Source of the DNA: Promethearchaeota archaeon
GTDB taxonomy: Archaea > Asgardarchaeota > Lokiarchaeia > Sigyniarchaeales > SOKP01
Reading direction: 5' to 3'
Length of the DNA: 25,526 nucleotides
Assembly (NCBI GenBank): GCA_016930515.1
Contig: JAFGGO010000099.1
Coordinates: forward strand, 1-25,526
The notes under the pieces were generated by a model, which made no database searches, was not told where the DNA came from, and saw nothing but the letters and a program-made list of their open reading frames with translations. Both the position numbers and the translations under genes were made by a program. Shown piece by piece: positions 982 to 21,800 of the stretch; position 1 is the stretch's first letter; each line of letters starts with the position of its first letter.

Positions 982-1968
982 GTGAATAAGAAATATAATA
1001 TCGAGACTCTTATAAAGAATTTCAAGGAGAATAATAAGATAGCCTTGGCGAGGCTCATTTCCATTGTAGAAAACAATCCCGATCGAGCTGAAGAAGTTTT
1101 CAAGCATTTTAATGGCAAACATCACGATTCTTACATCATTGGAATCACGGGATCTCCTGGAGTTGGGAAAAGTACATTAACAGGGTCGATCGCTAAAATT
1201 CTTTTGGATAAAGGTAAAAAAGTAGGGATCATTTCTGTAGATCCAACGTCCCCTTTCAGTGGAGGAGCTTTCTTAGGAGATAGAGTTCGAATGCCAAACA
1301 TAACTCTTCATCCAAACTTATTCATGAGAAGCCTCGCATCTAGAAGTTCCAAAGGAGGCCTTTCAAGAGCAGTTTTTGACATCATCTTGCTTTACGAGGC
1401 GTTCGACATAGACATCATCCTCATAGAAACAGTTGGGGCAGGACAAAGCGAATTTGATATTTATAATATAGCTCATACGATTGTTGTTGTTCTCGTACCG
1501 GGCTACGGAGACACGATTCAGATGCAAAAGGCGGGAATCATTGAGATTGGAGACATTTACGATGTGAACAAAAAGGATCTCGGAGGCGAGGATGTTGCGG
1601 TTCAAGTGGAAATGATGCTCGATGATTCTACTTTCCAACACGATTGGAGACCGCCGGTTGTCATGACGAATTCACTCTCAGGAGAGGGTGTTAACGATCT
1701 TTTAGAACACATCTTTAAACACAGAGAACATATGAAAAAATTAAACCTCATGGAAAAAAAGAAAAATAGGGCACTAAATTACAAGATGAGAGAACTTTTT
1801 CTTCAAGAAATGGAAAGGGAATTGTCTAAAGTCATTAAACCAGAAGAATTCGATAAGATATCTACCGAAATAGGATCGAAAAAATTTCATGTTCATAATG
1901 TCATCAAGGAATTATTTCGCTCCGTTCACATTACCCGTCGACATAAGGATAGTTCAGAAGAGAAATGA
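982..1968 (+). CDS. meaB: MeaB/ArgK family GTPase (methylmalonyl-CoA mutase-associated metallochaperone)
   Basis: LARLISIVEN, P-loop GITGSPGVGKST, VDPTSPFSGGAFLGDRVRM, FMRSLASR, IETVGAGQSE, IQMQKAGIIEIGD and NKKD. GTG start. Confidence 0.93.
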   Translation: MNKKYNIETLIKNFKENNKIALARLISIVENNPDRAEEVFKHFNGKHHDSYIIGITGSPGVGKSTLTGSIAKILLDKGKKVGIISVDPTSPFSGGAFLGDRVRMPNITLHPNLFMRSLASRSSKGGLSRAVFDIILLYEAFDIDIILIETVGAGQSEFDIYNIAHTIVVVLVPGYGDTIQMQKAGIIEIGDIYDVNKKDLGGEDVAVQVEMMLDDSTFQHDWRPPVVMTNSLSGEGVNDLLEHIFKHREHMKKLNLMEKKKNRALNYKMRELFLQEMERELSKVIKPEEFDKISTEIGSKKFHVHNVIKELFRSVHITRRHKDSSEEK

Positions 1969-3930: not shown

Positions 3931-4831
3931 ATGAATCTTAATCCGAGCAAGTATTCAAGAAGAGAAATTTTTGCAATAATTTTTCTTATCTCAACTTCAA
4001 TATTGTAGGGAACTACATTCATAGTAGCAAAAATCGCGACTCGAGAGATCCCCGTTTTACTTTTTTTAGGAATGAGGTACTTGATAACTCTTATAGCATT
4101 TATCCCAACTTTATTAAGATACAAAAAGATCAACTTGAAATGAGTATTATATGGAATGATCAATGGATTGATTTTTTATCTTGCAATGATGTTTCAGACA
4201 TACGGACTTCAAACAACAACTGCAGGAAAAGCAGGTTTTATCACCGGGCTGAGCACATTAATCGTTCCTTTTTTTGCGTGGATTATTTTTTAAAAAAAAA
4301 TAAAGAAAAGAACTTTTTTAGCGCTATTTCTTTCGATTTTAGGTATTATCTTATTATTTTTTGAATCGTTCGATAATTTTATTTTAGGAGATCTTCTGGT
4401 TTTAATATGTGCACTTTTTGCTGCACTCTATCGTCTTTAACGATAAATTCGTTCAAGATATCGACATTTATTTGTATTTATTCTTTCAAATGCTTGTGAT
4501 GGTACCAGCACTTTTTATAAGTTCGATTATTGCTAGAGAGTCTTTTGATATAAATTTAATTGACATCAATTTCATTCTAATCATCTTTTACATGGGATTT
4601 ATTGTATCTGTATTAACTATATTCTTTCAAAATTGGGCGCAGAAAGTAAACAAGAATCCCACTCTAACGGGAATTATTTTCAATTTAGAACCCGTTTTTG
4701 CAGTTATTTTTGCATTCTTGATAGGGAACGAAACTCTCTCTTGGTTAGAACTCATTGGATGCGCAATCATCTTCTTTTCCATATTCATAGCTGTTTACGA
4801 GAAAAACAGAACCCAAACTGAAATGATGTAA
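3931..4831 (+). pseudogene. DMT/EamA-family transporter pseudogene
   Basis: From ATG 3931: MNLNPSKYSRREIFAIIFLISTSIL*GTTFIVAK...GMRY...K*VLYG...FQTYGLQTTTAGKAGFITGLSTLIVPFFAWIIF*KKI...GDLLVLICALFAAL. Stops are TAG 4006, TGA 4141 and TAA 4291. A frameshift near 4430 leads into the 4409-4831 frame (QNWAQK...IFNLEPVFAVIFAFLIGNE). Confidence 0.88.
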
Positions 4832-4857: not shown

Positions 4858-5844
4858 TTATTGATTTTCAAAGGATTTTTCCAAGCCTTTTATTAACACC
4901 GTAATTAATTCGTTAATTGGAACGGAAATGTTAATTTCTTTAGCGTAATTTACTATTCTTCCGTTTATAAAATCAATTTCAGTCTTTTTTCCTTTTAAAA
5001 TATCCTGAAGCATTGAATTCTTGTTTGAAGACGTTTTTTTCGCAACATCATAAGTCAAGGCAATAAAATCTTTTTGAGAAAGGTGAATATTTTTCTTTTC
5101 AGCAATCATTAGTGCTTCATTTATCGCTCTTGCCATAAAATTCTTCAAATCCTGGTTTTGTAATAATTGACCGTTTCTTAATCGCGTTAAAGCCCCAAAC
5201 GCGTTAATTCCAATGTTAATAAAAACTTTCTCCCAGCATTCTCCCTGAATATTTTCCACAATAATGGTCTCTAAACCAGCGTCAGATAAAAGTGTTTTTA
5301 AAGTATCGAGATCCTTTGATTTGAGTTTTATATCTTTTTTCTCAAAGGGAAAGCCAATCTTCGTAACACCAATTCCCGTATGAACTATTCGACCATCACC
5401 CTCTCTTAAGGCTCCGTTAGTTGTAACCATTCTTACAAGCTTATTTTCGTCGCAATACTTCTTTGCAACGTCTTCATTTCCAATACCATTTTGTAGGAGA
5501 ATTAAAAAATGACTTTCTGCAATTACCTTCTGATATTGTTGAAGAGTTGAGTCGGTATCGTAAGTTTTTGTAGTAAGAAAAATGAAATCAAAATTAAATG
5601 GTATATTATAATTTTCTGCTTCCTCAAGACTTTCGAACGCTTTAACATTTTTTACCACGATTGTCGAGTCCTTTATTTGAATAAAAAGCCCTTTTTCACG
5701 AATGGCTTTCACATGTTCTTTTCGTGCGAATAAAACAATATCAATTGGTTTTGATTCAGAATGTAGGTTTGCAAGATAGCCCCCAAATAAGGAACCCATC
5801 GATCCTGCCCCAATAATTCCAATACGTATTTTTTTAACTGGCAA
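4858..5844 (-). CDS. panE: 2-dehydropantoate 2-reductase (ketopantoate reductase)
   Basis: GAGSMGSLFG Rossmann motif, TTKTYD, LLQNGIG, WEKVFINIGINAFGAL and SMLQDILKGKKTEIDFING. TTG start. Confidence 0.93.
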   Translation of the reverse strand: MPVKKIRIGIIGAGSMGSLFGGYLANLHSESKPIDIVLFARKEHVKAIREKGLFIQIKDSTIVVKNVKAFESLEEAENYNIPFNFDFIFLTTKTYDTDSTLQQYQKVIAESHFLILLQNGIGNEDVAKKYCDENKLVRMVTTNGALREGDGRIVHTGIGVTKIGFPFEKKDIKLKSKDLDTLKTLLSDAGLETIIVENIQGECWEKVFINIGINAFGALTRLRNGQLLQNQDLKNFMARAINEALMIAEKKNIHLSQKDFIALTYDVAKKTSSNKNSMLQDILKGKKTEIDFINGRIVNYAKEINISVPINELITVLIKGLEKSFENQ

Positions 5845-5865
5845 GGAACGAAACCGAATAGAATA

Positions 5866-7242
5866 TTATTTTTTTTGCTTTTCCCACTTTTTCAAATAAG
5901 TAACCTCTGAAAGCGTGGAACCTCTCTTTATTTCTTCCCTGTATCTATTTTCTTTCTCAAGTACATCAATGGCTCTATTAACCATTTCTTGTGCTTTCCT
6001 TTTCGGAACTACGACCACACCAGAATCGTCTCCTATGATCCAATCGCCTGGTTCAACCTTTTGACCTGCACATTCGATACTCACATTATTTTCGCCTAAA
6101 CCTCGAGGTTCCCCCGCAGTAGGGGTAAAATGTTTTGCATAAGCGGGAAATTTCATTTTTCTTATATCGTCAATATCTCGTATCGCACCATCAATGACGA
6201 CACCCGATATACCCTTGGTCTTGCAACTCCAAGACGCTAATTCGCCCCAAACTGCGATTTCTCCCGCACAAGCGTCTATAACTATTACATCTCCTGGTTG
6301 TGCTTCTTCTATCGCCTCGACAGGCTTGCTCCAATCACCGTTATACGTTCGAACGGTATAAGCAGGACCAACGAATTTTAAAGGATGGTCTTCAGTACCT
6401 ATCCACACGGGTTTTAAGCCTTTCATCTCTCCGCTTCTATGCATTGCGTCAGAAACATTTGGAGCCGAAACCTTTTTGAATGCATCTCTAATATGTGCCT
6501 CATCGTACTTTTTAAAAAGCGCTGTTTCTACAGCTTTTGCAGATTTTATGGCTTGTTTGATTTTTTTAGCCGATTCTTCGGGATTTTCTGCCTTATAGAG
6601 CGCACCACCTACAATAATAACATCCACACCCAGTTGTTTTGCGTGCGCGGCTGTTTCACTGTTGATTCCTCCCGCAATTGCGAGCCATGTGGTAGGTTGG
6701 AGCTTTTCTTTTAGTACAGTGGCAACATCGAGAGTTTTTTCTCCTCCATAAATTACTTGTTGATCCACACCAACATGAGAAACTATCATATCTACACCTA
6801 GTGATTCTAATTCTATCGCTCTTTGTACAAGTCTATCAGGAGGAATATCTATCGTATCGCATCCTAACATTACCCCAAATTTTTTTGCTGCTTCTACGGC
6901 CTCTGTTACGGAGGCATTATCGCTTCCACCAAGCATTAAAACGACATTAGCTCCCGATTTAGCGGCAATTTCTATTTCTACGGACCCCCCATCTGCAGTC
7001 TTCATGTCAGCGACGAGAATCTTGTCTGGAAATCTTTTGTGCAATTCTCGCAAGATATTCATCCCTTCAGATTTTATCAATGGAGTTCCAGCTTCTATCC
7101 AATCCACCCCTCCTCTTACAGCTTCCTCAGCTATTTGCAGCGCTCGATGAGTGTTTATCAAATCAAGGGCTATTTGCAGATAAGGTTCTTTTTCTCGTTT
7201 TCTTAACAATAAAATCACGGAGGTATATTTTTTTTTAAACAC
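5866..7242 (-). CDS. hxlA: 3-hexulose-6-phosphate synthase fused to a C-terminal RraA/HMG-aldolase-like domain
   Basis: N-domain: LQIALD, IEAGTPLIKSEG, ADMKTADGG, HVGVDQQ, AGGIN, IVGGAL (HPS/KGPDC TIM barrel). C-domain: NVSDAM, GPAYTV, GDVIVID, AVWGELAS, GVVIDGAIRDID, PGDWIIGDDSGVVVVP (RraA family). The true start may be the TTG at 7209. Confidence 0.9.
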   Translation of the reverse strand: MFKKKYTSVILLLRKREKEPYLQIALDLINTHRALQIAEEAVRGGVDWIEAGTPLIKSEGMNILRELHKRFPDKILVADMKTADGGSVEIEIAAKSGANVVLMLGGSDNASVTEAVEAAKKFGVMLGCDTIDIPPDRLVQRAIELESLGVDMIVSHVGVDQQVIYGGEKTLDVATVLKEKLQPTTWLAIAGGINSETAAHAKQLGVDVIIVGGALYKAENPEESAKKIKQAIKSAKAVETALFKKYDEAHIRDAFKKVSAPNVSDAMHRSGEMKGLKPVWIGTEDHPLKFVGPAYTVRTYNGDWSKPVEAIEEAQPGDVIVIDACAGEIAVWGELASWSCKTKGISGVVIDGAIRDIDDIRKMKFPAYAKHFTPTAGEPRGLGENNVSIECAGQKVEPGDWIIGDDSGVVVVPKRKAQEMVNRAIDVLEKENRYREEIKRGSTLSEVTYLKKWEKQKK

Positions 7243-7545
7243 TCGTTAGTTTAATAAATCCAAATATTTTTTACAAAATAATTTTTTCGCATATGATAAT
7301 TCAATAGTGAAATAAAATCCCACATTTTATTGTATTTTTTATTATATTTGCGATACTTAATTTTCTTATTAATTTCAGTTGTTATTAAAGGTAATCATTA
7401 AATTATTTAAAGACTTGTTTTTAAAGGTTCAATCAAGAGAAGGAATTTTCTTATTATAACAATTATATCCCTTAAGTGTTATGCTAAGCTCAATAATTTG
7501 AACAGAATAAAATCTATAATGAATAATCAAAAATTCAGTTATGTT

Positions 7546-8499
7546 CTAGTCCAAAGATTCACATTTGATAATTTCTGGACCTTTATTACTTATTGATGTC
7601 TTAATAATTTTAATTTCTGGAGAGTAGGAGTTTAAAATCTTTCTTACATCACCTTCGTCTTTTTTTTCGCAGATTGCAAATATAGACCTCCCAAGTTGGT
7701 TCATACTAGCACCAATGATGTCCAACTCGTTTAATTTAACCATTAATTCCTTGGTTTTTTCAAGTCTGAGTATTTCAAGTATATTCGTTTCTTTTACAAA
7801 CTCTAAAGAGGCTTCCATGAATGTCTTAAGACTTGGTTTTTTAAGGAGTAAATTTAGAGCTCTTCTCCCATTTTCTTTGATTTTAGCACTCAAAACGGGA
7901 TCTGTTAATATTGATTTTGTATGGATCATGCCAAATGTTCCACAATAAACCACTAAATCTGGTGGAAATTCGATATTTTCCCGGGAACAAGGGTATCCTG
8001 GTTCCTTTAAAACGCACAAACCACCAATTAATTGACCACAGACCGTTCCTAACCCGGTCCTGTTCACGACTTCTGCCACATGCGCTATTCTCCCGCATTC
8101 TCGAGTATCTAATCCCAGATTGAGAATCTTATTTAACCCGTATATCGCTCCAAGGGCCCCAGAACCGCTCGCCCCGTAACCACACCCCACAGGTAGTTCA
8201 AAAAAGTGTTCAATTTCTAATTTAACGGGATGTTTTATTAAATTGCAAATTTCTTTGTAAATCGAAAAAGTGGTTTCTGCTTTCTGGTTTAACTCTTCGT
8301 TATTAATCTTTATAATACATTCGGATGTATGGTTTGCTTCAAGTTGTTGACAAGTTATTTCAGTCCTACCTAATGCGCTTAAATTAAATCCTGCTCCCCT
8401 AGATCCTATCTTTTCGGGAATGGAACTGACTTGATCCACTATTTCAAAAAATCCCGAAATCCTATGAGGCACCTCTACAATTACTTTATGTTTGTTCAT
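7546..8499 (-). CDS. pok: Archaeal pantoate kinase (GHMP kinase family)
   Basis: PHRISGFFE, GSRGAGF, GHMP motif LPVGCGYGASGSGALG, AHVAEVVNRTGLGTV and SMNQLG. Confidence 0.88.
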   Translation of the reverse strand: MNKHKVIVEVPHRISGFFEIVDQVSSIPEKIGSRGAGFNLSALGRTEITCQQLEANHTSECIIKINNEELNQKAETTFSIYKEICNLIKHPVKLEIEHFFELPVGCGYGASGSGALGAIYGLNKILNLGLDTRECGRIAHVAEVVNRTGLGTVCGQLIGGLCVLKEPGYPCSRENIEFPPDLVVYCGTFGMIHTKSILTDPVLSAKIKENGRRALNLLLKKPSLKTFMEASLEFVKETNILEILRLEKTKELMVKLNELDIIGASMNQLGRSIFAICEKKDEGDVRKILNSYSPEIKIIKTSISNKGPEIIKCESLD

Positions 8500-10748: not shown

Positions 10749-11522
10749 ATGAACGAAGAAAAAGACATGTTAATATTGACCGAAAAATTAAAGGACTATT
10801 TAAAAACTCTTGAAATTGATATAGTTGGAGTAGCTGATGTGAATAATGAACTTTTTGTTCAAGCACCTGAGGAGCACCAACCTAAAAACATTCTTGAAAA
10901 AGCAAAAAGCGTAATAGTTTTTGGTATACCAATGACAAGGAGTATTTTCAAATTGAAAAAACACCAACTTCAGCTCCTTCACAGGGAATACCACAGCCTA
11001 TATAAAAATCTCGATATTATTTCAACGAAATTGGCAATATACATAGAATCTTTAGGGCATTACGCAATACCTATTCCGTCCTACAATCCGACTTCCTATA
11101 AAAATAATATTGAACCTTGGGGCGTGATTTCGCTTAAGCACGCATCGGTTGCCGCAGGTATCGGAAAAATTGCGAAAAATGGAATGATGATCCACCCAAG
11201 ATATGGTACATTGGTTAGATTGGCTGCCGTTATAACGACCGCAAATTTATCCCCTGATCCCGTATTGGAAGAGGATATTTGCTTGGATTGTAATCTCTGC
11301 GTCGAAGCGTGCCCTTACGGAGCGTTCACGAACGAGGGAAAGTTTAATAAAATTATTTGCATGCCAAAAACGGTGAAACATGGCTTATTTTCGCTTCACT
11401 ATAACGATCCAATGTTTCGGCAGAAAATTGAACTAGTTACAAATACAATGTTTTTGGAATATTCCATAGGATGCACGAGTTGCCAAGAAGCATGTCCACT
11501 TAACAAAAAACCATTAAAATAG
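10749..11522 (+). CDS. QueG/reductive-dehalogenase-like 2x[4Fe-4S] protein
   Basis: DIVGVA, AKSVIVFG, SLKHASVAAGIGKIAKNGMMIHPRYGTLVRLAAVIT, CLDCNLCVEACP, and C...CTSCQEACP. Confidence 0.85.
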   Translation: MNEEKDMLILTEKLKDYLKTLEIDIVGVADVNNELFVQAPEEHQPKNILEKAKSVIVFGIPMTRSIFKLKKHQLQLLHREYHSLYKNLDIISTKLAIYIESLGHYAIPIPSYNPTSYKNNIEPWGVISLKHASVAAGIGKIAKNGMMIHPRYGTLVRLAAVITTANLSPDPVLEEDICLDCNLCVEACPYGAFTNEGKFNKIICMPKTVKHGLFSLHYNDPMFRQKIELVTNTMFLEYSIGCTSCQEACPLNKKPLK

Positions 11523-11569: not shown

Positions 11570-13090
11570 TCATGTACGGTTATCAGAAACGGCGTATTCG
11601 GCCCAACCGCGCTTCAGATCACCTTTAGTGCCCATCATTTCTTCTTTAATCCAACCATCGTAGATCTTCCACATTTGCTCTAAATTATTCGTTATTCGCA
11701 CGCCTCTCTTTAATGGGTCCTTCCTAGCATTACTATAATCTAAGAAATAAACGATATATTCAGGGAAATATCCGCTATCGCCCTTGTTTGTTTTCCACGC
11801 CATGAATTTTTTTATTGCATTATCTCCCTTGTCGTAAACGGCTTTTGCTAAAACTTTTGAAGATTTCAATTTAAGTTCTTTCACGGAGTCCGACACTTGG
11901 ATGTCTAAAAGATCTGTAATTTGACTGATTCGCACATCTTCTATGTTGGATGCATCTTTATCCGATCTAATTGGATCTGTTTCGATGAATCGAGGGTGGA
12001 TGAGCTTAACGAATGGCATTAGACGAATCATTTTCCACTCGTTGTTATCCTTATCGAAAAATAAAGACGGTTGCATGATGGGCTCTCCTTCGTGGTCCGT
12101 GATAATGTCCAAGTATTCTAATTGCCCAACTAATTGAGGCTTTACCATTTTCATGGCCCTTCCGTCTCGAGTCGTGGTGATAAAACTTCTTGATTCGATT
12201 ATTTCGAATTGAGACCAGATTTCTCTTCTTTGATCGTCTGTCAAGCCACCACCCACTCTCGTTAAAACTTGATAATTTCCATCGGGATACCTTAACGCAA
12301 CGAGGGCAGTTGCAAGTTGATTTTCTCCCAATCGAGAGTCTTGCCGACCTTCTGCGATAGCAATTATCGCAACATCAAGAGTGTGAATTGGTTTAATTTT
12401 AAGGGTAAGATGTCCTGCTCGGACGATCAATCCCTCGTGTCCACCTTTAACCACGGTTTTAAAATAATATTCCTGCAAGTCGTGTGTATTGGAAAACGAT
12501 TTCGTTCGAACAGGGGCGATCCTGCCATCTTTTTCGAATATTTCTGAAAGCTTATCATGACGTTCCCTGTATTCCTTTTCTAACCAATCTTTTCCATCTA
12601 TTTCAACCACATCAAAAACTCGAAATCCAATTCGTTCTAAATCTTCATCGGATGAAGGATTTCTCCTATAACGCATCAAATCGTATACGGTTGATCGGGC
12701 GTTAAAATCAATGGGTGTTGTCGTTGATGCGTGCATCTCTCCCATAAAGAGGGCAGACTTAATCCCTTTTTTTTTCATGATTTGCTTCATTTCGTCATTA
12801 ATAGGCAACCCGAGGAAGACCCGGTGAGTAGGCGTGTTAAAAAAGATCGATTCGTCTTTTTTTTCGTCGTAGTAATATCCTGTAAAAGCGCCATCAACTT
12901 TTACACTCGCTATGAAATTTTTTCCAGGAAGTCCTATGATGTCTTCTTCTCTTCTCGTTAAAAAGCGTTGAGTAATATTTTTTCGATAAAAATCTATTTT
13001 TTTAGCCAAATCAGAATAAGGTAGGCTTTCAGATTTGCCTCTTAAATATCCGTGGAAAGACGTCTCAATTTTATCTTTAGTTAATTTCAT
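11570..13090 (-). CDS. Compact ATP-dependent DNA ligase (NTase + OB domains) with an extra C-terminal domain
   Basis: Motif I SVKVDG (K64), III FMGEM, IIIa FRVFDVV, IV HEGLIVR, V LKIKPIHTLDVAIIA. OB domain RVGGGLTDDQR and VKPQLVGQLEY; motif VI-like HPRF. No N-terminal DNA-binding domain. Confidence 0.85.
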   Translation of the reverse strand: MKLTKDKIETSFHGYLRGKSESLPYSDLAKKIDFYRKNITQRFLTRREEDIIGLPGKNFIASVKVDGAFTGYYYDEKKDESIFFNTPTHRVFLGLPINDEMKQIMKKKGIKSALFMGEMHASTTTPIDFNARSTVYDLMRYRRNPSSDEDLERIGFRVFDVVEIDGKDWLEKEYRERHDKLSEIFEKDGRIAPVRTKSFSNTHDLQEYYFKTVVKGGHEGLIVRAGHLTLKIKPIHTLDVAIIAIAEGRQDSRLGENQLATALVALRYPDGNYQVLTRVGGGLTDDQRREIWSQFEIIESRSFITTTRDGRAMKMVKPQLVGQLEYLDIITDHEGEPIMQPSLFFDKDNNEWKMIRLMPFVKLIHPRFIETDPIRSDKDASNIEDVRISQITDLLDIQVSDSVKELKLKSSKVLAKAVYDKGDNAIKKFMAWKTNKGDSGYFPEYIVYFLDYSNARKDPLKRGVRITNNLEQMWKIYDGWIKEEMMGTKGDLKRGWAEYAVSDNRT

Positions 13091-13099
13091 CGTTTTGTG

Positions 13100-13807
13100 C
13101 TACCTCGTTTTTTTTTTCTTTGGAAGTTTTATTTCTTGATCAGAGATGTGAAGAATAAGACAATATGAATCGTCCTTTACCCTTCCCTCTAAAAATGCTC
13201 TAGGAAATTTCCTTCCACCATCGTACAGAACTAAAGGTTCCTTTTTTTTTGTATCTGAATTGTAGGCCTCAACCAATGCAAATTTACCAGATAAAAATAA
13301 TTTTTTAGCAATATCAAACAAAAATTTATAGGAAGCTCCATCGTAATGAGTGATAAAATAACTCTTACGAAACACATAATTCACAAGTAAATCCTTAGGC
13401 TCGAATAATTCTTCGGTTATCCTAACTGGTAGTGTCCCATGAACATTTCCTGTTGATCGTTCGTGTGGTCTCTCCTGTTTTTTTCCATCGGGTCTTATAA
13501 TCACATCAAAAGACTTGAAATTATACACGGGATCGTAGTTATCTTTTACTGCGATTCTCGAAGTCGACTTGATATACCTCCCCGTCGTGTTTGGATCTAC
13601 ATCCACATCTTCATCCTTGAGTTTTTTCACGAGGTCAGGCTCCTCAAGAAGTTTTTCATCAGATTTTTCTCGATCAAAAATTAGATACCTTTTACTATCG
13701 ACCTTTTTTCCATCAGGACTCAACCTAAAATATTTCTTTGTCCCGTGAGTGGGAATCAGTTCCAAGTTCTTTGCGTCAATCTTTTCGTAAGCCAAATATA
13801 TTTTCAT
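13100..13807 (-). CDS. Hypothetical protein, putative divergent Ku core domain (Ku-like B)
   Basis: VRITEELFEPKDLLVNYVFRKSYFITHYDGASYKFLFDIAKKLFLSGKFALV...YCLILHISDQEIK resembles the prokaryotic Ku pattern (ieI..Fv...eidp.YF.rsYyl.p.....kay.LLr.aL..sgk.aia...l.l..l.y.dEvr). Basic C-tail. GAGGTGA SD upstream. Confidence refers to the Ku call; the ORF itself is secure. Confidence 0.6.
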   Translation of the reverse strand: MKIYLAYEKIDAKNLELIPTHGTKKYFRLSPDGKKVDSKRYLIFDREKSDEKLLEEPDLVKKLKDEDVDVDPNTTGRYIKSTSRIAVKDNYDPVYNFKSFDVIIRPDGKKQERPHERSTGNVHGTLPVRITEELFEPKDLLVNYVFRKSYFITHYDGASYKFLFDIAKKLFLSGKFALVEAYNSDTKKKEPLVLYDGGRKFPRAFLEGRVKDDSYCLILHISDQEIKLPKKKKTR

Positions 13808-13816
13808 TTCTTCTTA

Positions 13817-13823
13817 TCACCTC
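13817..13823 (-). promoter_or_regulatory. Shine-Dalgarno GAGGTGA overlapping the stop codon of the upstream gene
   Basis: Minus strand reads TGAGGTGATAAGAAGAAATG. Similar GAGGT(G) motifs precede the ligase (13102-13106) and rad50 (17261-17266). Confidence 0.7.
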
Positions 13824-14421
13824 ACCACACATCAAATTCGGGTTCTTCTTCCTCTTCTTCGTCATAATACAATATTTCTTGCGGTTTTAACATTACTGGG
13901 GCGATATATTCTCCAATAGCAACAAGCAATACATCATCTTTAGGAATGAGTATTGCGTCTTTCGGATCTACCGTATCGTAATAAGCATATGTGAATTTGT
14001 ACAATTTATCTTGTTCCTCTAACAATTTTTCACAAGCTATCTTGAGATCTTGAAGATTTTCAGACTCTAAGACATACAACCTCTCAACATCATAGCAAAA
14101 ATAATCGAGTAGATTAATCGTGCTTTCGATGTTAACGGGTCCAGAATACATCGACTTGGTTTTAGGTAACTCCTTGCCATCTTCACCAACCACGATCGTT
14201 TCTTTCGTGTAAAAACCGTCTTCGTTCAAATAAGAACTTCCCATTCCGCCCGAAGGAACGACGTGGGTGCCGTCAGACGAGAGATAAGCGTTTTTAAATA
14301 TATTTCCATCGTTGTCCCTTCGCTCAATAATGATTTTTCCGTAAACATCGTCTCTCGAGAGCGCTTTCAACGAGCCCACAATGTCCTTTCCCTCTAATTG
14401 TAAGGTTAATTTTCTTGGCAT
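13822..14421 (-). CDS. Hypothetical protein, putative divergent Ku core domain (Ku-like A)
   Basis: RDNDGNIFKNAYLSSDGTHVVPSGGMGSSYLNEDGFY resembles the Ku bridge (h.kdg.ri.y.rv....g.eV....ivkgYe...g.y). VNIESTINLLDYFCYDVERLYVLE...LLEEQDKLYKF...AILIPKDDVLLV resembles the Ku core. Acidic C-tail. Confidence refers to the Ku call. Confidence 0.5.
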   Translation of the reverse strand: MPRKLTLQLEGKDIVGSLKALSRDDVYGKIIIERRDNDGNIFKNAYLSSDGTHVVPSGGMGSSYLNEDGFYTKETIVVGEDGKELPKTKSMYSGPVNIESTINLLDYFCYDVERLYVLESENLQDLKIACEKLLEEQDKLYKFTYAYYDTVDPKDAILIPKDDVLLVAIGEYIAPVMLKPQEILYYDEEEEEEPEFDVW

Positions 14422-14440
14422 TTTACATCCTCTATTTTCA

Positions 14441-14476
14441 AACTTATAAGTTCTAATTAAGGATTATTTAAAAAAA
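14441..14476 (-). promoter_or_regulatory. Candidate internal promoter (TATA-like TTTAAATA) and 12-bp palindrome upstream of the Ku-like pair
   Basis: The 121-nt gap after rad50 contains minus-strand TTTTTTTAAATA and, downstream of it, the perfect palindrome AACTTATAAGTT (14441-14452). Confidence 0.35.
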
Positions 14477-14542
14477 CAATCAGTAAAGAATTTTTAATAC
14501 TATACAAATTTCAACCTAATTTCAGATCGTTTTTAAAGCGAT

Positions 14543-17251
14543 TTAAGAATTAAGAAATTGCACGTGAGAAATTTCATCTTCGTCTTTCGAGAACTTTATG
14601 ACATTTTCAGCGCTTTCCTCAAATGTGTCGTCGTGAGATATGATAAAAAGTTGTTTGAAGCCTTTAATGTTTTGAATGCATTTAGCAAGGTTTAATCGCA
14701 CATCGGAGTCCAAATTCGTAGTTGGTTCGTCAAAAAAGGCAAAATCAGCGTTAGTTAATATTTTCAAAATCGAAAGGCGAACGGATAATGCAACTGCCAT
14801 TTGCTCGCCCCCTGATAATTGATTATATTCTTTTTCTATTTCAGGCGTGATGAGCCGCACGTTATAATCTTTTTCTAGTTTTAACTGAACGGCATCGGAA
14901 TCAGTTAGTTCCCTGTAAATTTCAGATGCTAGTTGGTTGATTTTATTGAGTAATGCTTCAGTTATTTTTGGTCCAGCTTCTTTATAAATAAGGCGGAGAG
15001 ATTCGGTGAGATCTCTTGAATAAACTAACCAAGCCCTTTGTTTTTCCAATTTCTCGAATTTTACTTGAAGGTCAACAAGGTGTTCCATTTTTTGTTCGTG
15101 TTTGAGCAAAATAGCGCCTTTTTCATCAATCTTTGTCTTCATTTGAATTGTTATTTCAAGCAAATTTTCCTTTTTAATCCTCGTCTCATTGAATTCTTCG
15201 TTGTTAAATAAGGTTAAAACATGCTTGATCTCTTTTTTGATAGAATCAAGGTTATTTTTAGTATTTTCCATGAGTTTGTTTTGTTTGGCAAGCTCTTTTT
15301 CGAGTTCGGGTACTTTATTGGCGATATTTATCGATTTTTGATACTTATTGTAATTTTCAATCGTTTTTTCTAATTCCTTTTTAACGGTCGTAAACTCTTC
15401 TGGAACATGTTTTAATTCGTTAATTTTTTTATCGAGTGGTTTTAAAATCTTCTCGAGCGGTTTTAATTCGGATAATAATTCGGTTTCTTCTTTCTGTAAT
15501 TTGGGAAGTTCAACATTAATCTTTTCTTTATAAAGTTGGTATTGCTCGATTGAGGATTTAAGTTGCTCCTTGCGATGCATGAGCTCATCGAGGCGTTTCT
15601 TCAGCTCTAATTTCAAACTAACTTTTTCTTTTAGTTCTTTAATTTGATTGATATATTCAATGTATAATTTCTTCACACTTCTTAATTCTCCCTCGTCTTC
15701 TGATAATTGCTCGATTTTCTGTTGTAAGCCCGAAATTTTTTCAATTTTTTTGTTAAATTCATTTAATTTATTTATCGTTGATTTTAGTTCTTCTTTTAAG
15801 GGTACGAGTTGTTTATGGAAGTGATCTATAAGCGAATTTCCCTCGATGTTCTTGCATTTTTCGTTCAGAAAGGGACAATTTCCTCCTTTCGAGTTTTTTA
15901 TGTTTTCTTCAAGGTGTGCAATTTCCGTATCGAGGGTGATTCTTTTTTCGTTAAGCTGATTATATTCGTTCTGGAATACCTCAAGTTGGGAATAATCGCT
16001 TCTAATTTTAGGAAGAACTTTCAATTTATCTTCCAATTCAAATTTCCTTTTATTATTTTCAAGGTGTTTTTCCTTGATTCCGTCTAAGTTTTCTTGATAT
16101 GCCATTATGGTTTTAATCTGCCCTTGTAATTCTTCGATCTTTTTCTGGATATCTTCTGATTCATTAAAATTTTCTTCTAATTTGGGAATCATATTTTTCA
16201 TACTTGAAATATCTCCAATTTGAGCACGAACCCTTTCGATTTTTGCGTTAAATTCTGTAATTCTTTTTTCTGAATTTGTTTTTTGTTCTTTAAAGGCTTG
16301 GAGTTTTAAATGATGTTCTTGAAGTTCTTTTTCTTTAATAATTAGTATCTTATGTTTAGTATGGTCTGAAAGTGCTTGTTTACAAATTTTTTCGGATTCT
16401 CTAGCTTCTAATAGATTTTTCTTGATAAGATCTGTGGTTTCTCCTTCACTTACTAATTTTTGTTCTAGTTCTTTCTGTTTAAGATCCAAATCTTTTAATT
16501 TTTCTTCCATTTTTTTTAATTTATCATGTTTTTCAGATACTTGCTTGAGCTCTTTTTCATTTGTTTCAAGATCAGATTCGAGTTTCTTAATTTCATCCTT
16601 TAATTGTTCTATTTCTTGCTCCGTTTCTTCTTTTTCCTTCAATTCTCCTTCCAATTTTCCCATTTCTACAGCTAATTCCTGAATCTCGTTCTTGAATAAA
16701 TTCACTAATTTAATCCCTTTTTCATAAATATTACGATACACATCTACATTTAAAATTGGATTAAAAAATTTCATTCGTTCAGTAGGCGTTCGGAGAAATG
16801 GTTCGGTAAAAGTCCCTTGAGGGATGCCTATGGAAGTCTCAAAAATGTTGGAAAGGTTCAAATCTTTTCTTAATGAAAATTGCGTTTTTAACCAGGCTAT
16901 AAGGTCGCTTTTATTATCTATGTTTTGAATCAAAACGCCTGTCCGAGCGTCTGATATTTCTATCGCATTATTCTGTTTCCCAATCGTCCTTTCCACGATA
17001 AAAACATCGTCGTTGAGACCCACAACCCATAATTTAATTACACCGTATTTAGGTGTTTTTCTTACGGTGGTACGCACATAAGACTTTTGATTTCCTGGAA
17101 GATAATTGAATAATACATATCCAATCATGTTTAATATCGTTGATTTTCCCGTACCGTTTTGACCGAGTAACATGTTTAAACCTTCTTGAAATTCAATAGT
17201 AGTCCTTTTATGGGTTGTGATGTTTTGTAGTTCGATTTTTTTAATCAACAT
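14543..17251 (-). CDS. rad50: Rad50/SbcC SMC-like ATPase
   Basis: Walker A GQNGTGKS, Q-loop IPQG, long coiled coils with a central CPFLNEKC, signature LSGGEQ, Walker B/D-loop FFDEPTTNLD, H-loop ISHD. Confidence 0.95.
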   Translation of the reverse strand: MLIKKIELQNITTHKRTTIEFQEGLNMLLGQNGTGKSTILNMIGYVLFNYLPGNQKSYVRTTVRKTPKYGVIKLWVVGLNDDVFIVERTIGKQNNAIEISDARTGVLIQNIDNKSDLIAWLKTQFSLRKDLNLSNIFETSIGIPQGTFTEPFLRTPTERMKFFNPILNVDVYRNIYEKGIKLVNLFKNEIQELAVEMGKLEGELKEKEETEQEIEQLKDEIKKLESDLETNEKELKQVSEKHDKLKKMEEKLKDLDLKQKELEQKLVSEGETTDLIKKNLLEARESEKICKQALSDHTKHKILIIKEKELQEHHLKLQAFKEQKTNSEKRITEFNAKIERVRAQIGDISSMKNMIPKLEENFNESEDIQKKIEELQGQIKTIMAYQENLDGIKEKHLENNKRKFELEDKLKVLPKIRSDYSQLEVFQNEYNQLNEKRITLDTEIAHLEENIKNSKGGNCPFLNEKCKNIEGNSLIDHFHKQLVPLKEELKSTINKLNEFNKKIEKISGLQQKIEQLSEDEGELRSVKKLYIEYINQIKELKEKVSLKLELKKRLDELMHRKEQLKSSIEQYQLYKEKINVELPKLQKEETELLSELKPLEKILKPLDKKINELKHVPEEFTTVKKELEKTIENYNKYQKSINIANKVPELEKELAKQNKLMENTKNNLDSIKKEIKHVLTLFNNEEFNETRIKKENLLEITIQMKTKIDEKGAILLKHEQKMEHLVDLQVKFEKLEKQRAWLVYSRDLTESLRLIYKEAGPKITEALLNKINQLASEIYRELTDSDAVQLKLEKDYNVRLITPEIEKEYNQLSGGEQMAVALSVRLSILKILTNADFAFFDEPTTNLDSDVRLNLAKCIQNIKGFKQLFIISHDDTFEESAENVIKFSKDEDEISHVQFLNS

Positions 17252-17254
17252 GCT

Positions 17255-18841
17255 TTAAAACACCTCAAAGTCAGATTCTTCATCCTCTTCTTCTCCGTCG
17301 TCTATATATAAATCCAAATCTATATCGTCAAATTCGTCATCATCGGAAAGTTCAAATCCTTCAATCCCATCTTTATCCTTAGCTTCAGTTTCTGGTTGAT
17401 TTATGATTTTAAATAATTTTTCTTTATCCTCTTCTTCTTGTTGATATGTAGAGAATACTTCTTCGATGGATTCGAAGTCTTTTATATTAAGTTTGACCCA
17501 TTCTTTAATTTGATTTCGTAATTTAGAATAATTTGGTTTTCTATCTGTTAATTCGGTTTTTAGATCGTCCATCAAGCCAAGTACTTTTTCTTTTATTGGG
17601 GAGAACTTCTGATTCTCTTCTACCAAGGCTAAGAAGATTTCCCGTTCTATTTCATCAATGGTCAAATCAGTACCAGATGTTTTTATGGTATCAAGAGAAG
17701 AATATAAATCCTTGCTATATGTTCTAACGTCTAATAGCGCAAATTCGTCTAAAATCTTTTTGCGAAGCTTATTAAGGTTAATTTCTAAACGAGAATACTT
17801 TATTTCTCCTTTTATTGAAAAAACTAAAATCATCGTATCAAGATCTTCTCTTGAAAAATTAGGATTGTTTTTTTTCAATGGAATGTTGTAATTTCTAACC
17901 CGTTGAACAATCATATCAATAGCTTGATCAAAGGAGTTTGTTGACCCAATATCAATCGAGCTCATGGAATAGAAGCGCCTATTTGGAATTAGATGAGGAT
18001 CTGAAGCACCATTATCGCAGGCAATTGGTCTAATATTTCTTTTATAAAATTCCTTTCCCGTAATATTACAAATAATTGCCCCTCTAGGATATTGTAAACT
18101 CGGAATTTCGAAAATATCCGTTGTTTCTAAACTCCCTGGATTGAATATCCATGGTTCCGAAGCCGGATAAGAAAATGACCTGTGATAATGTCCTAATGCC
18201 AAATAATCAATCTTTTCACCAAGTTTCTTCAAATTATCGCTTATTTCTATACCTGGCTTTTTCTTGTCATAACCTTGAACGCCAAAGTGCATCATTAATA
18301 TGTTAAACTTTGAGGAATCGGAGTTTATTTCGTTGTAAATAGATGGAAAAAGGTTTTCAGTAAAACTTCCATAGTAGGGAAGCCCATATATATTACAATC
18401 CTTTATTTGTATCGTTCCTCCCCTGCGAGTTTCGTGTGAGTATTTTTGAAAACTCACTTTTTTCGAATTTTTATCGAATTGCCCGTTTAGTAAAATAATT
18501 AATCCCAAATCGGCCAAGAAACTCATCCACGATTGGGAAGAATATATTGGATTGTCGTGATTTCCTTCAATGCATATAATTTTTATATCTCTTTTTAACC
18601 TTTTATTACATTCAAGCTGAAAATCGGTTACAATATTATAGACTTCACTTAGGACGGACGGTCCAATCTTCTTGTTATCGAATAGATCTCCAGAGATCAG
18701 AATGAAATCCACTTCTTCCTTGATACTAAGTTCCAAAATCCATTTAAAAGCCTCGAAATAATCCCGATATCGTTCTTCAAGATTGTATTGTTTTTTCCCG
18801 AGGTGCAGGTCCGCAATGTGGATATACTTAACAGGATCCAT
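17255..18841 (-). CDS. mre11: Mre11/SbcD metallophosphoesterase nuclease with long acidic C-terminal tail
   Basis: HIADLHLG, SGDLFD, EGNHD, MMHFG, LGHYH and NPGSLE. Lies 3 nt upstream of rad50. Confidence 0.93.
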   Translation of the reverse strand: MDPVKYIHIADLHLGKKQYNLEERYRDYFEAFKWILELSIKEEVDFILISGDLFDNKKIGPSVLSEVYNIVTDFQLECNKRLKRDIKIICIEGNHDNPIYSSQSWMSFLADLGLIILLNGQFDKNSKKVSFQKYSHETRRGGTIQIKDCNIYGLPYYGSFTENLFPSIYNEINSDSSKFNILMMHFGVQGYDKKKPGIEISDNLKKLGEKIDYLALGHYHRSFSYPASEPWIFNPGSLETTDIFEIPSLQYPRGAIICNITGKEFYKRNIRPIACDNGASDPHLIPNRRFYSMSSIDIGSTNSFDQAIDMIVQRVRNYNIPLKKNNPNFSREDLDTMILVFSIKGEIKYSRLEINLNKLRKKILDEFALLDVRTYSKDLYSSLDTIKTSGTDLTIDEIEREIFLALVEENQKFSPIKEKVLGLMDDLKTELTDRKPNYSKLRNQIKEWVKLNIKDFESIEEVFSTYQQEEEDKEKLFKIINQPETEAKDKDGIEGFELSDDDEFDDIDLDLYIDDGEEEDEESDFEVF

Positions 18842-18875
18842 TATTAATTACTTTTATTTTTAGTTTGAATTAAAT

Positions 18876-21800
18876 TTATTGCCTATATCGAAATCTAATT
18901 TCTTTTTCTTGATCTTTATCATCTATTATTGTCAATTTTTTCTCTGTATTACAATAATTATATGCATATTTTCTTATTTGAGCGGCCTCTTCCATTACTT
19001 TACGATCGCTTGGTATGTTATTCAAAAACATGTCGCTCGAAATTAAAATTACCTTACATTTTGCTCGAGATGTTAGAACATTAAATCGATTAAGATTATA
19101 AATAAATTCAACTTCAGCGTTGAGTTGATCCTTATCGGATAAACCAATTGAGGCAATAATAAATTCTCGATCCGATCCTTGAAATTTTTCAACTGAATAG
19201 ACCGTATTTTTGAGTAGTTTCATTAATAAAGCAGGCTCGAGCAAGGTTTTTTTATCAATTGAATCTATCATTTTAGTATATATTTTTCGGATAATTAAGC
19301 GTCCTTGAGCGTTGTGAGGCGCAACAACACCAATTTTTTCCTTCCAAAAATTTTGCTCGTCTTGTTTAGTTTTGAGCTCACTCATTTTAAAATATCCAAT
19401 TACAAGTTCTGAAACCATTTCAGCTTCTAATGTACTCACTCCTATCTCGTATTTATTATCGTGAACGAGAGCACCAACTATTTTATTTGGATCCAAAACA
19501 TCCTTAATCCAAGTAGTTTTAATATTATTTAAGTTACCACCAAGTTTCAAACTTGCGTTTAATGGTGCAGCTTTTAATTTCTTATAAACTCCCAACATTG
19601 AAGTAAATTTCACAATTGCCTTGTTAGATCTGTAATTAACTTGGAGTTGACGGCTAGGAATTGAATGTGCTTGAACATAATAACCAAACAAGCTTTGCAG
19701 GACTTTTTCTAAATTTTTTGGAGGATTTAAAGGTTGCACGGGGGGAAGTTGATTATAATCACCAACTATAATTATTTTTGTAAGTTTTGCAATTTCTTGA
19801 TTTCGATCGATTTCCAATCGGTTAATCATTGAAGCGTCTTCAATTAATTTATTTGGTTTATAGGTAATACTTGGTTTTCGGAGCTCAAGCTTAACATTTC
19901 TTACGAATTGGAGGCTCGACATGAAATAATCAACTTGTAGTTGACTTGCCTCGTCAACGATAATCAGATCGAAATAAAAGTCGGATCTTACCCTTTCTTT
20001 TAAATGATATAATTGATGAGCATTTGCGAATAAAATAAAATCCTCTTCTAAGGACTCTTCTAATGGTCTTGTTGCGGTGACCGTTCTAGATTGACCGTTT
20101 AATTTCCAAGAATATCCCTTTCTTAGCAAATCGTCCACATCCCTGCACCCTGCTTTTTTATCAACGGGTTTTTGATGTTCAGAGCGTAAAAATATTAGTT
20201 GGGTTTTTGCTGAACTTGTTGGATTTCCTGATTTATCATTGCTTTGTCGCACTTTATTTATAATAACTCGAATTGCTGCGTAGGAAAACGCAGTTACCAA
20301 GATCCTATTTTTAATACATTTCTGCTTATTTCTCTCGATATATTCGTCAATCAGGGCTGCAATTGTTTGGGATTTTCCCGTACCTGGGGGGCCTTGAATT
20401 GCAGAAATAAATTGTCCTAAAGAATTATTAATTGCTCGCGATTGAGATCTATCTGGAGGAGGTAATATTGGAGTAATTAATGGTCTCTTCAAATTATTTT
20501 TTTTCACATCGATAAGCTGAAATAGCAGTTCTGGAGCAAACAAATAGATCGAAGGCGAATTAAATACCCAACTTGAAGGCCAGCGTAGTTTAGGATTAGA
20601 TCTAACCTTCCATAAATAGGAGCGCCGACTTCCTAACCATGAAGTACCGAAGGAGTGTCTTTGGAGAAGTCCGTCTTCACGATAGAGCTTGTTTGACCAA
20701 CTATCAACAGATGTGGGATATACATACCAAGCAGTATCGTTAACATTATGAATATATTTTCTAAAGAACTTTCCCCTAGTTAATTCAGATTCAACGATAT
20801 ATCCATTGTTTTCATTGCTCCAGGTTAATTTTTTAATAATTATCTTGCATTTTTCCATGTTATTTCCTGATCTCATTCCTCTTTTATTGTCAGGAATTAA
20901 ATAGACGCGATCACCTTCGTCTATTTTCATGTTGCTCGAAAGATTTACTAAAAAGAATTGAAAGGATACCTTTTTATCAAAGTCAAGCATCTGCAAGTTA
21001 GTAACCTTACCAGCAGCTAATTTTGCAATGCTATATTCGGGATATATCGTTCGAAATCCTTCAGCTTCGGTTTCGTCCATCGCACCGAGGTATTTAGAAA
21101 ATAAGTACCATACTTGGGCTATTGGGTGGTAATGCGAATCTAAAAAAACGCTTTTTAACTTCTTATCAGTTATGACTCTTGAATGTTTTGAAACAAAACT
21201 CCCCCCCTCTCTTTGGAAGTAGGATCTCAAGTCGTTAATAGTCCTGACTTTAAACATGAGTTGCTGCTTGAGCTTTTTCTTTAATTCTTTATTTTTAGTG
21301 GGATCTTCTTCAAGAAGATAATCGTACCAGTTATTGAAATCCATATAATTGAAATGAGGAATCCAATACATCGAATTTACCTTTTTATCAAGCAGTCTTT
21401 TTGCGATTTCGTGCCAGGTGTAAGATATTATGCCTGGAATTCCAAAAATGGTCTCAGAAAACTTTTGAATGTCAAATAATTTTTTATGCTGATACGGATG
21501 GGTTACCTCCGAATCAGAAGGTTTGAATAGAGAAAGAATCGAATTTAAAGAGTTAGCCGTTTTGGGATCGTCAATGATGTATTCAAGAGTGCGCTCGAGC
21601 ATGTCTTGAAAATTGTTTAATTGTCTTGAAGACCAATAATAAAAGCTCGTTGTTGGTCCAAAAAACTTTCCAGGCTCAAAAGCTTCCACTACAACATAAT
21701 TTTCAATGATATTGCACATATCAAATATTGTACTAAGGTAATTTATCACATGTTTTGAGAACTTCGCTTCGGATTCATCAGTGTCTCCCTCGTTCACGGA

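Follow-up and report, generated by a model that had tools for sequence, protein, structure and literature searches.

Cells require coenzyme A, but in well-studied methanogens PPS occurs without PanB, the enzyme of the ketopantoate-forming step. A locus in a Promethearchaeota archaeon (GenBank assembly GCA_016930515.1) raises the question of what could take its place. The stretch of DNA that we analyzed, hereafter the window, comprises 25,526 nt of contig JAFGGO010000099.1. In it, a gene for an HPS domain fused to an RraA domain (5866-7242, minus strand) lies between pok, encoding a probable pantoate kinase, and panE, encoding ketopantoate reductase. A first-pass annotation, made from the letters alone, had proposed that this fusion passes HPS-derived formaldehyde to an RraA-type ketopantoate aldolase. 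Its description of the locus was accurate: the three open reading frames (ORFs) are co-oriented on one strand, 21 nt separate the fusion gene from panE, the RraA domain carries WGE at residues 332-334 and DGAIRD at 351-356, and no panB was found in the window with the PF02548 profile. Based on evidence that is comparative throughout, we conclude that the fusion very probably fills the PanB step as a nonorthologous and nonhomologous replacement. The family itself is already known; what is new is the proposed function. We found no publication linking RraA or HPS-MenG to ketopantoate, in a search that had subscription journals outside its reach.

The fusion and panB across genomes

The host genome (4.0 Mb, 94% complete, 5.3% contaminated) encodes PPS, which adjoins an MfnA-type decarboxylase, as well as CoaBC. 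No panB was found anywhere in it, either with the PF02548 profile or by tblastn and blastn with panB from a close relative, remnants included. The pok gene (7546-8499, minus strand) encodes a probable 317-aa archaeal pantoate kinase of the GHMP family, an assignment favored by its gene context. It is present as a single copy and adjoins the fusion gene elsewhere in the genus too. Pantoate-kinase models rank first among its profile matches (NF041122 and NF040725 are the best NCBIfam matches; E = 1e-34 and 2e-32), with scores under their lineage-specific cutoffs (120 versus 500 and 112 versus 380 bits). The panE product (4858-5844, minus strand; 328 aa with a TTG start; PF02558 and PF08546) exceeds the TIGR00745 cutoff (252 versus 141 bits). 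A search of the genome for IlvD found none; two PF01063 aminotransferases could supply ketoisovalerate from valine.

If the fusion stands in for PanB, as the first-pass annotation supposed, it should occur where panB is absent. This was the pattern that we found, with strong anticorrelation in Asgard archaea, in Halobacteriota, and in a class of Chloroflexota. Among 41 relatives, all 13 panB-less genomes had the fusion and all 25 fusion-less genomes had panB, while 3 had both. Across 201 Asgard genomes at least 85% complete, panB was not found in 22 of the 24 with the fusion and was found in 161 of the 177 without it. For the 201 Halobacteriota genomes we defined a strong ortholog by E < 1e-50; panB was not found in 151 of the 152 genomes that have one and was found in 39 of the other 49. 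Fifty further fusion-bearing genomes (16 bacteria, Thermoplasmata, and methanogens) held no true panB (0/50), and the better of two weak matches there proved to be a PEP-mutase/lyase-family protein. The Chloroflexota class of genome G223, probably Dehalococcoidia, had panB in 180 of 199 genomes without the fusion and in neither of the 2 with it. Elusimicrobiota offered a weak contrast, since the base rate of panB is 55/121 there (0/6 in fusion genomes); the fusion was not found in five Elusimicrobiota panB genomes, in a search run without a positive control. Overall, the fusion genomes in which no panB was found number well over 200. The exclusion recurs at several levels: inside one genus, two Promethearchaeota families, Halobacteriota, and a bacterial class, as well as between Asgard families.

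The rest of the pathway was retained in these genomes. PPS was present in 53 of the 56 archaeal fusion genomes tested (21/22 Asgard, 32/34 other archaea), and PanC was present in all 10 fusion-bearing bacteria tested. The control genomes of M. jannaschii, which alone represented Methanobacteria and Methanococci, and M. acetivorans had PPS, and PanB was not found in either. Sixteen Asgard genomes had neither the fusion nor panB; PPS was tested in 12 of them and was absent in 8. Two Asgard families were dropped as support: in f6 the pathway is absent as well, and the standalone RraA of f13 (G048 and G058) occurs where PPS is missing too.

Gene order and evolutionary history

Conserved linkage to pan genes, likewise anticipated from the window, was found to panE, pok, and pps in archaea and to panG-panD-panC in bacteria. 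The cluster in the window's genus reads pok-fusion-[panB]-panE-pps-mfnA. There, panB lies between fusion and panE at two loci (L086 and L107) and is cleanly missing at L085, L098, L130, and the window, where the 21-nt spacer (5845-5865) marks the site occupied by panB in two same-genus genomes. Other Asgard families have pps-fusion-panE-mfnA (L071-L074) or fusion-panE (L075-L078), and panE-fusion occurs at four Thermoplasmata loci (L109, L113, L115, and L120). One metagenome contig (L222) holds coaBC, pps, a split fusion, and panE together. The fusion is divided into two ORFs at L108, L221, and L222, for which frameshift errors and natural fission are both possible.

The strongest case comes from bacteria, whose loci place the fusion in the position of panB itself. 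The order panD-panB-panC was found at 26 of 30 loci of the Chloroflexota class, 19 of which have a DUF2520/PanG-type reductase visible in front. Fusion-bearing loci of this class (L103, L106, L108, and L221) read panG-panD-fusion-panC, and L105 has the same genes in rearranged order. Because these neighbors share no homology with their archaeal counterparts, the factor shared between the two settings is the pathway step. The linkage of the fusion to pan genes is not due to chance, as it recurs with different, nonhomologous pan genes in distant lineages.

These observations bear on a simpler account, in which the fusion serves pentose synthesis or formaldehyde detoxification only, pantoate is salvaged, and the pan link reflects co-regulation or chance. 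HPS is the sole activity that has been measured, many fusion loci lack a pan neighbor, and there are PPS-bearing genomes with neither fusion nor panB. However, this account would leave unexplained the exact occupation of the panB slot in a bacterial operon, the repeated linkage to the nonhomologous reductases PanE and PanG, and why panB and the fusion so seldom occur together within a single family or genus. Nor would it explain why the fusion is retained in bacteria without PHI. The pentose job already falls to Fae-HPS. We regard this account as very improbable.

In a quick tree, PanB of the window's genus grouped with PanB of its family, so that the simplest history is one in which both genes coexisted redundantly before panB was lost. 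Fused RraA domains formed one clade (100/99), apart from paralogs in panB-bearing genomes. When the full-length fusion tree was rooted on Halobacteriota, the Chloroflexota copies nested in Promethearchaeota family f2 (100/99). An approximately unbiased (AU) test rejected a single clade made up of the Promethearchaeota rows of families f1 and f2 (P = 0.010, an optimistic value because the group was chosen after the nesting had been seen in the domain tree). Given this nesting and the AU rejection, it is likely that the fusion was transferred from archaea into the bacterial panB slot. The higher GC content of the window's fusion was rejected as a sign of transfer, since its tree position follows the genus. 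Genome G195 carries a short duplicate of the 3' end of the fusion (L295:5629-5736), 3 kb from the intact gene, which suggests a recent insertion.

Domains of the fusion and the proposed source of its one-carbon unit

The 458-aa fusion exceeds the curated PRK07028 cutoff (603.3 versus 593 bits) over residues 19-457, with both domains (PF00215 and PF03737) in one chain. The AlphaFold model had a pLDDT of 90 and a pTM of 0.74. Its N-terminal HPS domain, an OMPDC-type barrel (approximately residues 20-232; 6547-7242, minus strand), superimposed on HPS 3AJX with a TM score of 0.93 and scored slightly below the TIGR03128 cutoff (183 versus 200 bits). The C-terminal domain (approximately residues 245-458; 5866-6546, minus strand) matched PF03737 (E = 2e-46) and the HMG/CHA aldolase 3NOJ (TM score of 0.80), making it a candidate ketopantoate aldolase. 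Across 126 fusion sequences, the catalytic-type HPS residues E50, D79-x-K81-x-x-D84, and H156 were invariant. So were G333, R355, D356, E431, W332, and A376 of the RraA domain, with E334 nearly so.

We mapped residue roles, as described for HMG aldolase (PMC5065237), through the alignment to 3NOJ. Donor-side residues were retained, namely G333-E334 (G101-D102 in 3NOJ) and R355-D356 (R123-D124), and E431 is the likely equivalent of E199, at a point where the pairwise alignment is ambiguous by two residues. Acceptor-side residues were replaced (N71 by W304, H75 by V308, T145 by G377, and K147 by P379). N71 and K147 are required for HMG cleavage and are the proposed binders of the acceptor carboxylate; mutation of either lowers kcat more than 1,000-fold (PMC5065237). 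The residue pattern would fit a 2-oxo-acid aldolase whose acceptor differs from that of HMG aldolase in being small and without charge.

Known functions of related proteins did not account for the fusion. We rejected a role as an HMG/CHA aldolase (LigK/PcmE; 105 versus 305 bits), given the replaced N71 and K147, and homology to PanB/KPHMT, as PF02548 was unmatched in the protein. Assignment as the RraA regulator of RNase E was also rejected, with 37 versus 241 and 69 versus 136 bits for TIGR02998 and PRK09372. The domain is about 210 aa long with an aldolase-type C-terminal helix, versus the short, 160-aa form of the regulator. The database name of the family does say "ribonuclease regulator," and one could suppose that role, a menaquinone methyltransferase role, or a catabolic direction in which ketopantoate is split into ketoisovalerate and formaldehyde that HPS then fixes. 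Aldolases are reversible, and HPS favors condensation. Yet a degrading enzyme is not expected to exclude panB or to lie between panD and panC, the true RraA models fall far under their cutoffs (37 to 69 bits), and TIGR01935 itself is labeled NOT-MenG. Readings of this kind appear very improbable.

In the mechanism that we propose instead, the HPS barrel would cleave d-arabino-3-hexulose-6-phosphate to ribulose-5-phosphate and formaldehyde. The chemistry of the family and the conserved residues suggest that the RraA domain would bind 2-ketoisovalerate on a divalent metal (E334/D356/E431) and that R355 would stabilize its enolate, with C3 being added to formaldehyde. PanE (or PanG) would then reduce ketopantoate to pantoate for PoK and PPS in archaea or for PanC in bacteria. 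Joining the domains would keep a low-flux source of formaldehyde beside its consumer and make folate unneeded. The aldol step would correspond to 2-dehydropantoate aldolase (EC 4.1.2.12), which to our knowledge is an old Escherichia coli activity with no assigned gene and a low affinity for formaldehyde. Formaldehyde probably reaches similar levels in equilibrium with hexulose-6-phosphate and with methylene-tetrahydrofolate (methylene-THF). Methanopterin takes the place of folate in most methanogens, and this would account for their need of an alternative to PanB. Taken as a whole, an HPS-fed fusion that makes ketopantoate is the best explanation, and we hold it with moderate confidence.

Biochemical data on the family come from M. 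hungatei. Its HPS-MenG (Mhun0647) was produced in E. coli and assayed for HPS in the direction of condensation, where its activity was approximately 30-fold below that of Fae-HPS (0.21 versus 6.05 µmol/min/mg); the function of its second domain was stated as unknown (PMC5241800). The first-pass annotation had also suggested that the fusion could couple pentose synthesis and formaldehyde disposal with coenzyme A synthesis. As the main role such coupling is unlikely, given the separate and, in M. hungatei, faster Fae-HPS, and bulk formaldehyde disposal is unlikely as well. The host genome likewise has a separate Fae-HPS, whose HPS domain is only 24% identical to that of the fusion, and one RraA domain in all. 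Demand for coenzyme A is small beside the demand for pentose. Domain fusion alone is no demonstration of channeling, and true tunnel-type channeling between the domains seems doubtful. In vitro, free formaldehyde serves as acceptor for 2-oxoacids in reactions of metal-dependent aldolases that have other folds, PanB and YfaU among them (PMC10127515).

Several observations count against an HPS-fed PanB replacement. Five genomes (G002, G003, G004, G195, and G662) have both the fusion and panB, and in G002 and G004 panB lies directly behind the fusion. Five Halobacteriota (G526, G533, G551, G591, and G602) have PPS without panB or any PF03737 domain, so that pantoate salvage or a third route to ketopantoate must exist. 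No pan gene lay within 1.5 kb of the fusion at any of the 30 Halobacteriota loci inspected. Most genomes were metagenome-assembled genomes (MAGs), and related genomes are not independent data points; Fisher P values therefore overstate the exclusion. The reaction of the RraA domain is inferred, HPS being the only activity measured for the family, and we know of no RraA-fold enzyme that uses a branched donor to build a quaternary carbon. Finally, a search for PHI (TIGR03127, E ≤ 1e-12) found none in 20 of 73 fusion genomes, among them 6/6 from the Chloroflexota class and 6/6 Elusimicrobiota. In the window's own genome, the sole candidate is a divergent tandem-SIS protein, with 101 bits versus the PHI cutoff of 160.

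The adjacency of fusion and panB in G002 and G004 would suit an accessory role, in which PanB, or some third enzyme that makes ketopantoate, receives one-carbon units from the fusion. That role would be hard to reconcile with the many fusion genomes in which panB was not found. No other recurring gene is common to the archaeal and bacterial clusters, and the fusion alone occupies the slot in Chloroflexota. There is little probability that the fusion is such an accessory.

The proposal that the HPS domain supplies formaldehyde held in part: its catalytic residues are invariant and an ortholog is active in vitro, but the substrate supply is less certain. Since PHI was not found in 20 genomes, the reverse ribulose monophosphate pathway from fructose-6-phosphate is not a universal source unless another isomerase operates. 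In PHI-less genomes, where the HPS catalytic residues are intact too, the substrate may be provided at a low rate by a different isomerase, or else the carbon is drawn from another pool. The host's tandem-SIS protein (381 aa; L181:1459-2601, on contig C4 of genome G000) is a possible divergent PHI, and similar two-SIS proteins of 380 to 470 aa occur in several Asgard genomes.

The fusion could therefore keep the PanB role with a different carbon source. The RraA domain would take formaldehyde from the free pool or from methylene-THF or methylene-tetrahydromethanopterin, and the HPS domain would only buffer or scavenge formaldehyde, or be fed by an unrecognized isomerase or another ketosugar phosphate. 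Besides the PHI-less genomes, a Kiritimatiellia operon (L162:5304-11440) points this way, uniting panE, a formate-THF ligase-like gene, hps-rraA, a phi-like SIS gene, FTCD_C, and a folD-like gene (fhs and folD were recognized by eye). It joins pantoate synthesis to folate one-carbon genes; however, its phi lies right after the fusion. A third pointer is an unfused relative of the RraA domain. Ten Halobacteriota have neither a strong ortholog nor panB; five of them have a weaker RraA match, and the other five have no RraA domain. In four panB-less Halobacteriota that we inspected (G477, G488, G509, and G517; L258-L265), the RraA gene is unfused, 34 to 41% identical, and has Gly in place of E334. 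Still, these copies lie one or two genes from fae-hps, in a fae-hps/tpiA-like/rraA cluster, and the HPS catalytic residues of the fusion are invariant even where PHI is missing. Another carbon source is possible, although we think it the weaker option; that ketopantoate carbon comes mainly from the fusion's own HPS domain is reasonably probable.

Searches with the RraA domain mostly returned truncated fusions, and a search with the unfused Halobacteriota RraA reached no named Methanococcales or Methanobacteriales. One homolog (P0163) was set aside on account of its unrelated gene context. In G526, a PoK-like gene adjoins PPS.

Surroundings of the locus and comparison with known systems

The intergenic region between pok and the fusion gene (7243-7545) is 303 nt long and AT rich. 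The true start of the fusion is probably a TTG at 7209, which would give 447 aa, in line with relatives' frames of 447 to 448 aa, and a gap of 336 nt; the gap is approximately 90 to 100 nt in same-genus relatives. Given this AT-rich gap, pok may be transcribed apart, and a separate promoter for fusion-panE may lie in it; the sigma-70 scan of this gap used a bacterial-type model unsuited to archaea. A single EamA repeat (4409-4831, plus strand; 140 aa) converges on panE where relatives run on into pps and mfnA, and it may mark a rearrangement that broke up the pan cluster.

Farther out, a MeaB GTPase, a chaperone of B12-dependent acyl-CoA mutases, is encoded at 982-1968 (plus strand; TIGR00750 over its cutoff). 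A 257-aa 4Fe-4S protein (10749-11522, plus strand) weakly matches reductive dehalogenase (TIGR02486) and QueG, both under cutoff. Six co-oriented genes (11570-23345, minus strand) possibly form a DNA-repair or defense module. They encode an ATP-dependent ligase-like protein (506 aa), two unknown ORFs, a Rad50/SMC-like ATPase (902 aa), an Mre11-like phosphoesterase (528 aa), and a 1,489-aa SF1 helicase (AAA_11/AAA_12).

In its broadest form, our proposal is that of a ketopantoate synthase needing neither folate nor pterin, with hexulose-6-phosphate as the one-carbon donor and formaldehyde handed from one domain to an RraA-fold aldolase. Such an enzyme would account for the missing PanB of most Halobacteriota methanogens and of many Thermoplasmata and Asgard lineages. 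It would also have reached bacteria, in one case apparently by passing from Promethearchaeota to a Chloroflexota pan operon and displacing panB in place. We rate this full statement at slightly better than even. If true, a single assignment would close both the PanB gap of methanogens and the gap left by the second domain of HPS-MenG, a widespread protein. The RraA fold would gain a biosynthetic reaction that forms a quaternary carbon, and a sugar phosphate would act as one-carbon donor in vitamin synthesis. Annotations would be corrected in many genomes and metabolic models, and pantothenate production would gain a candidate folate-free route.

Of the known systems nearest to it, the fusion would resemble PanB (EC 2.1.2.11, PF02548) in product, pathway position, and operon slot. 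Both would use a metal-dependent 2-ketoisovalerate enolate to attack a formaldehyde equivalent. In contrast, PanB is a PEP-mutase/isocitrate-lyase barrel that takes its carbon from methylene-THF, while the fusion has the RraA fold, no PF02548 match, and a sugar phosphate or free formaldehyde as its proposed donor. HPS-MenG (NF005442/PRK07028) belongs to the same family and has the same two domains, and the copy in an M. hungatei MAG (L151) is 50% identical to the window's fusion; the paper on Mhun0647 reported HPS activity only and proposed no link to coenzyme A synthesis (PMC5241800). The HMG/CHA aldolase of Pseudomonas putida F1 (3NOJ, LigK/PcmE, TIGR02798) shares the fold and has equivalents of R40, G101/D102, R123/D124, and probably E199. 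Unlike that enzyme, to which it is 25% identical, the fusion is joined to HPS and lies outside any aromatic-degradation context. Fae-HPS (PRK13307) and HPS-PHI fusions likewise pair an HPS barrel with a domain acting on what it makes or consumes, but there the partner captures formaldehyde on tetrahydromethanopterin or isomerizes the sugar.

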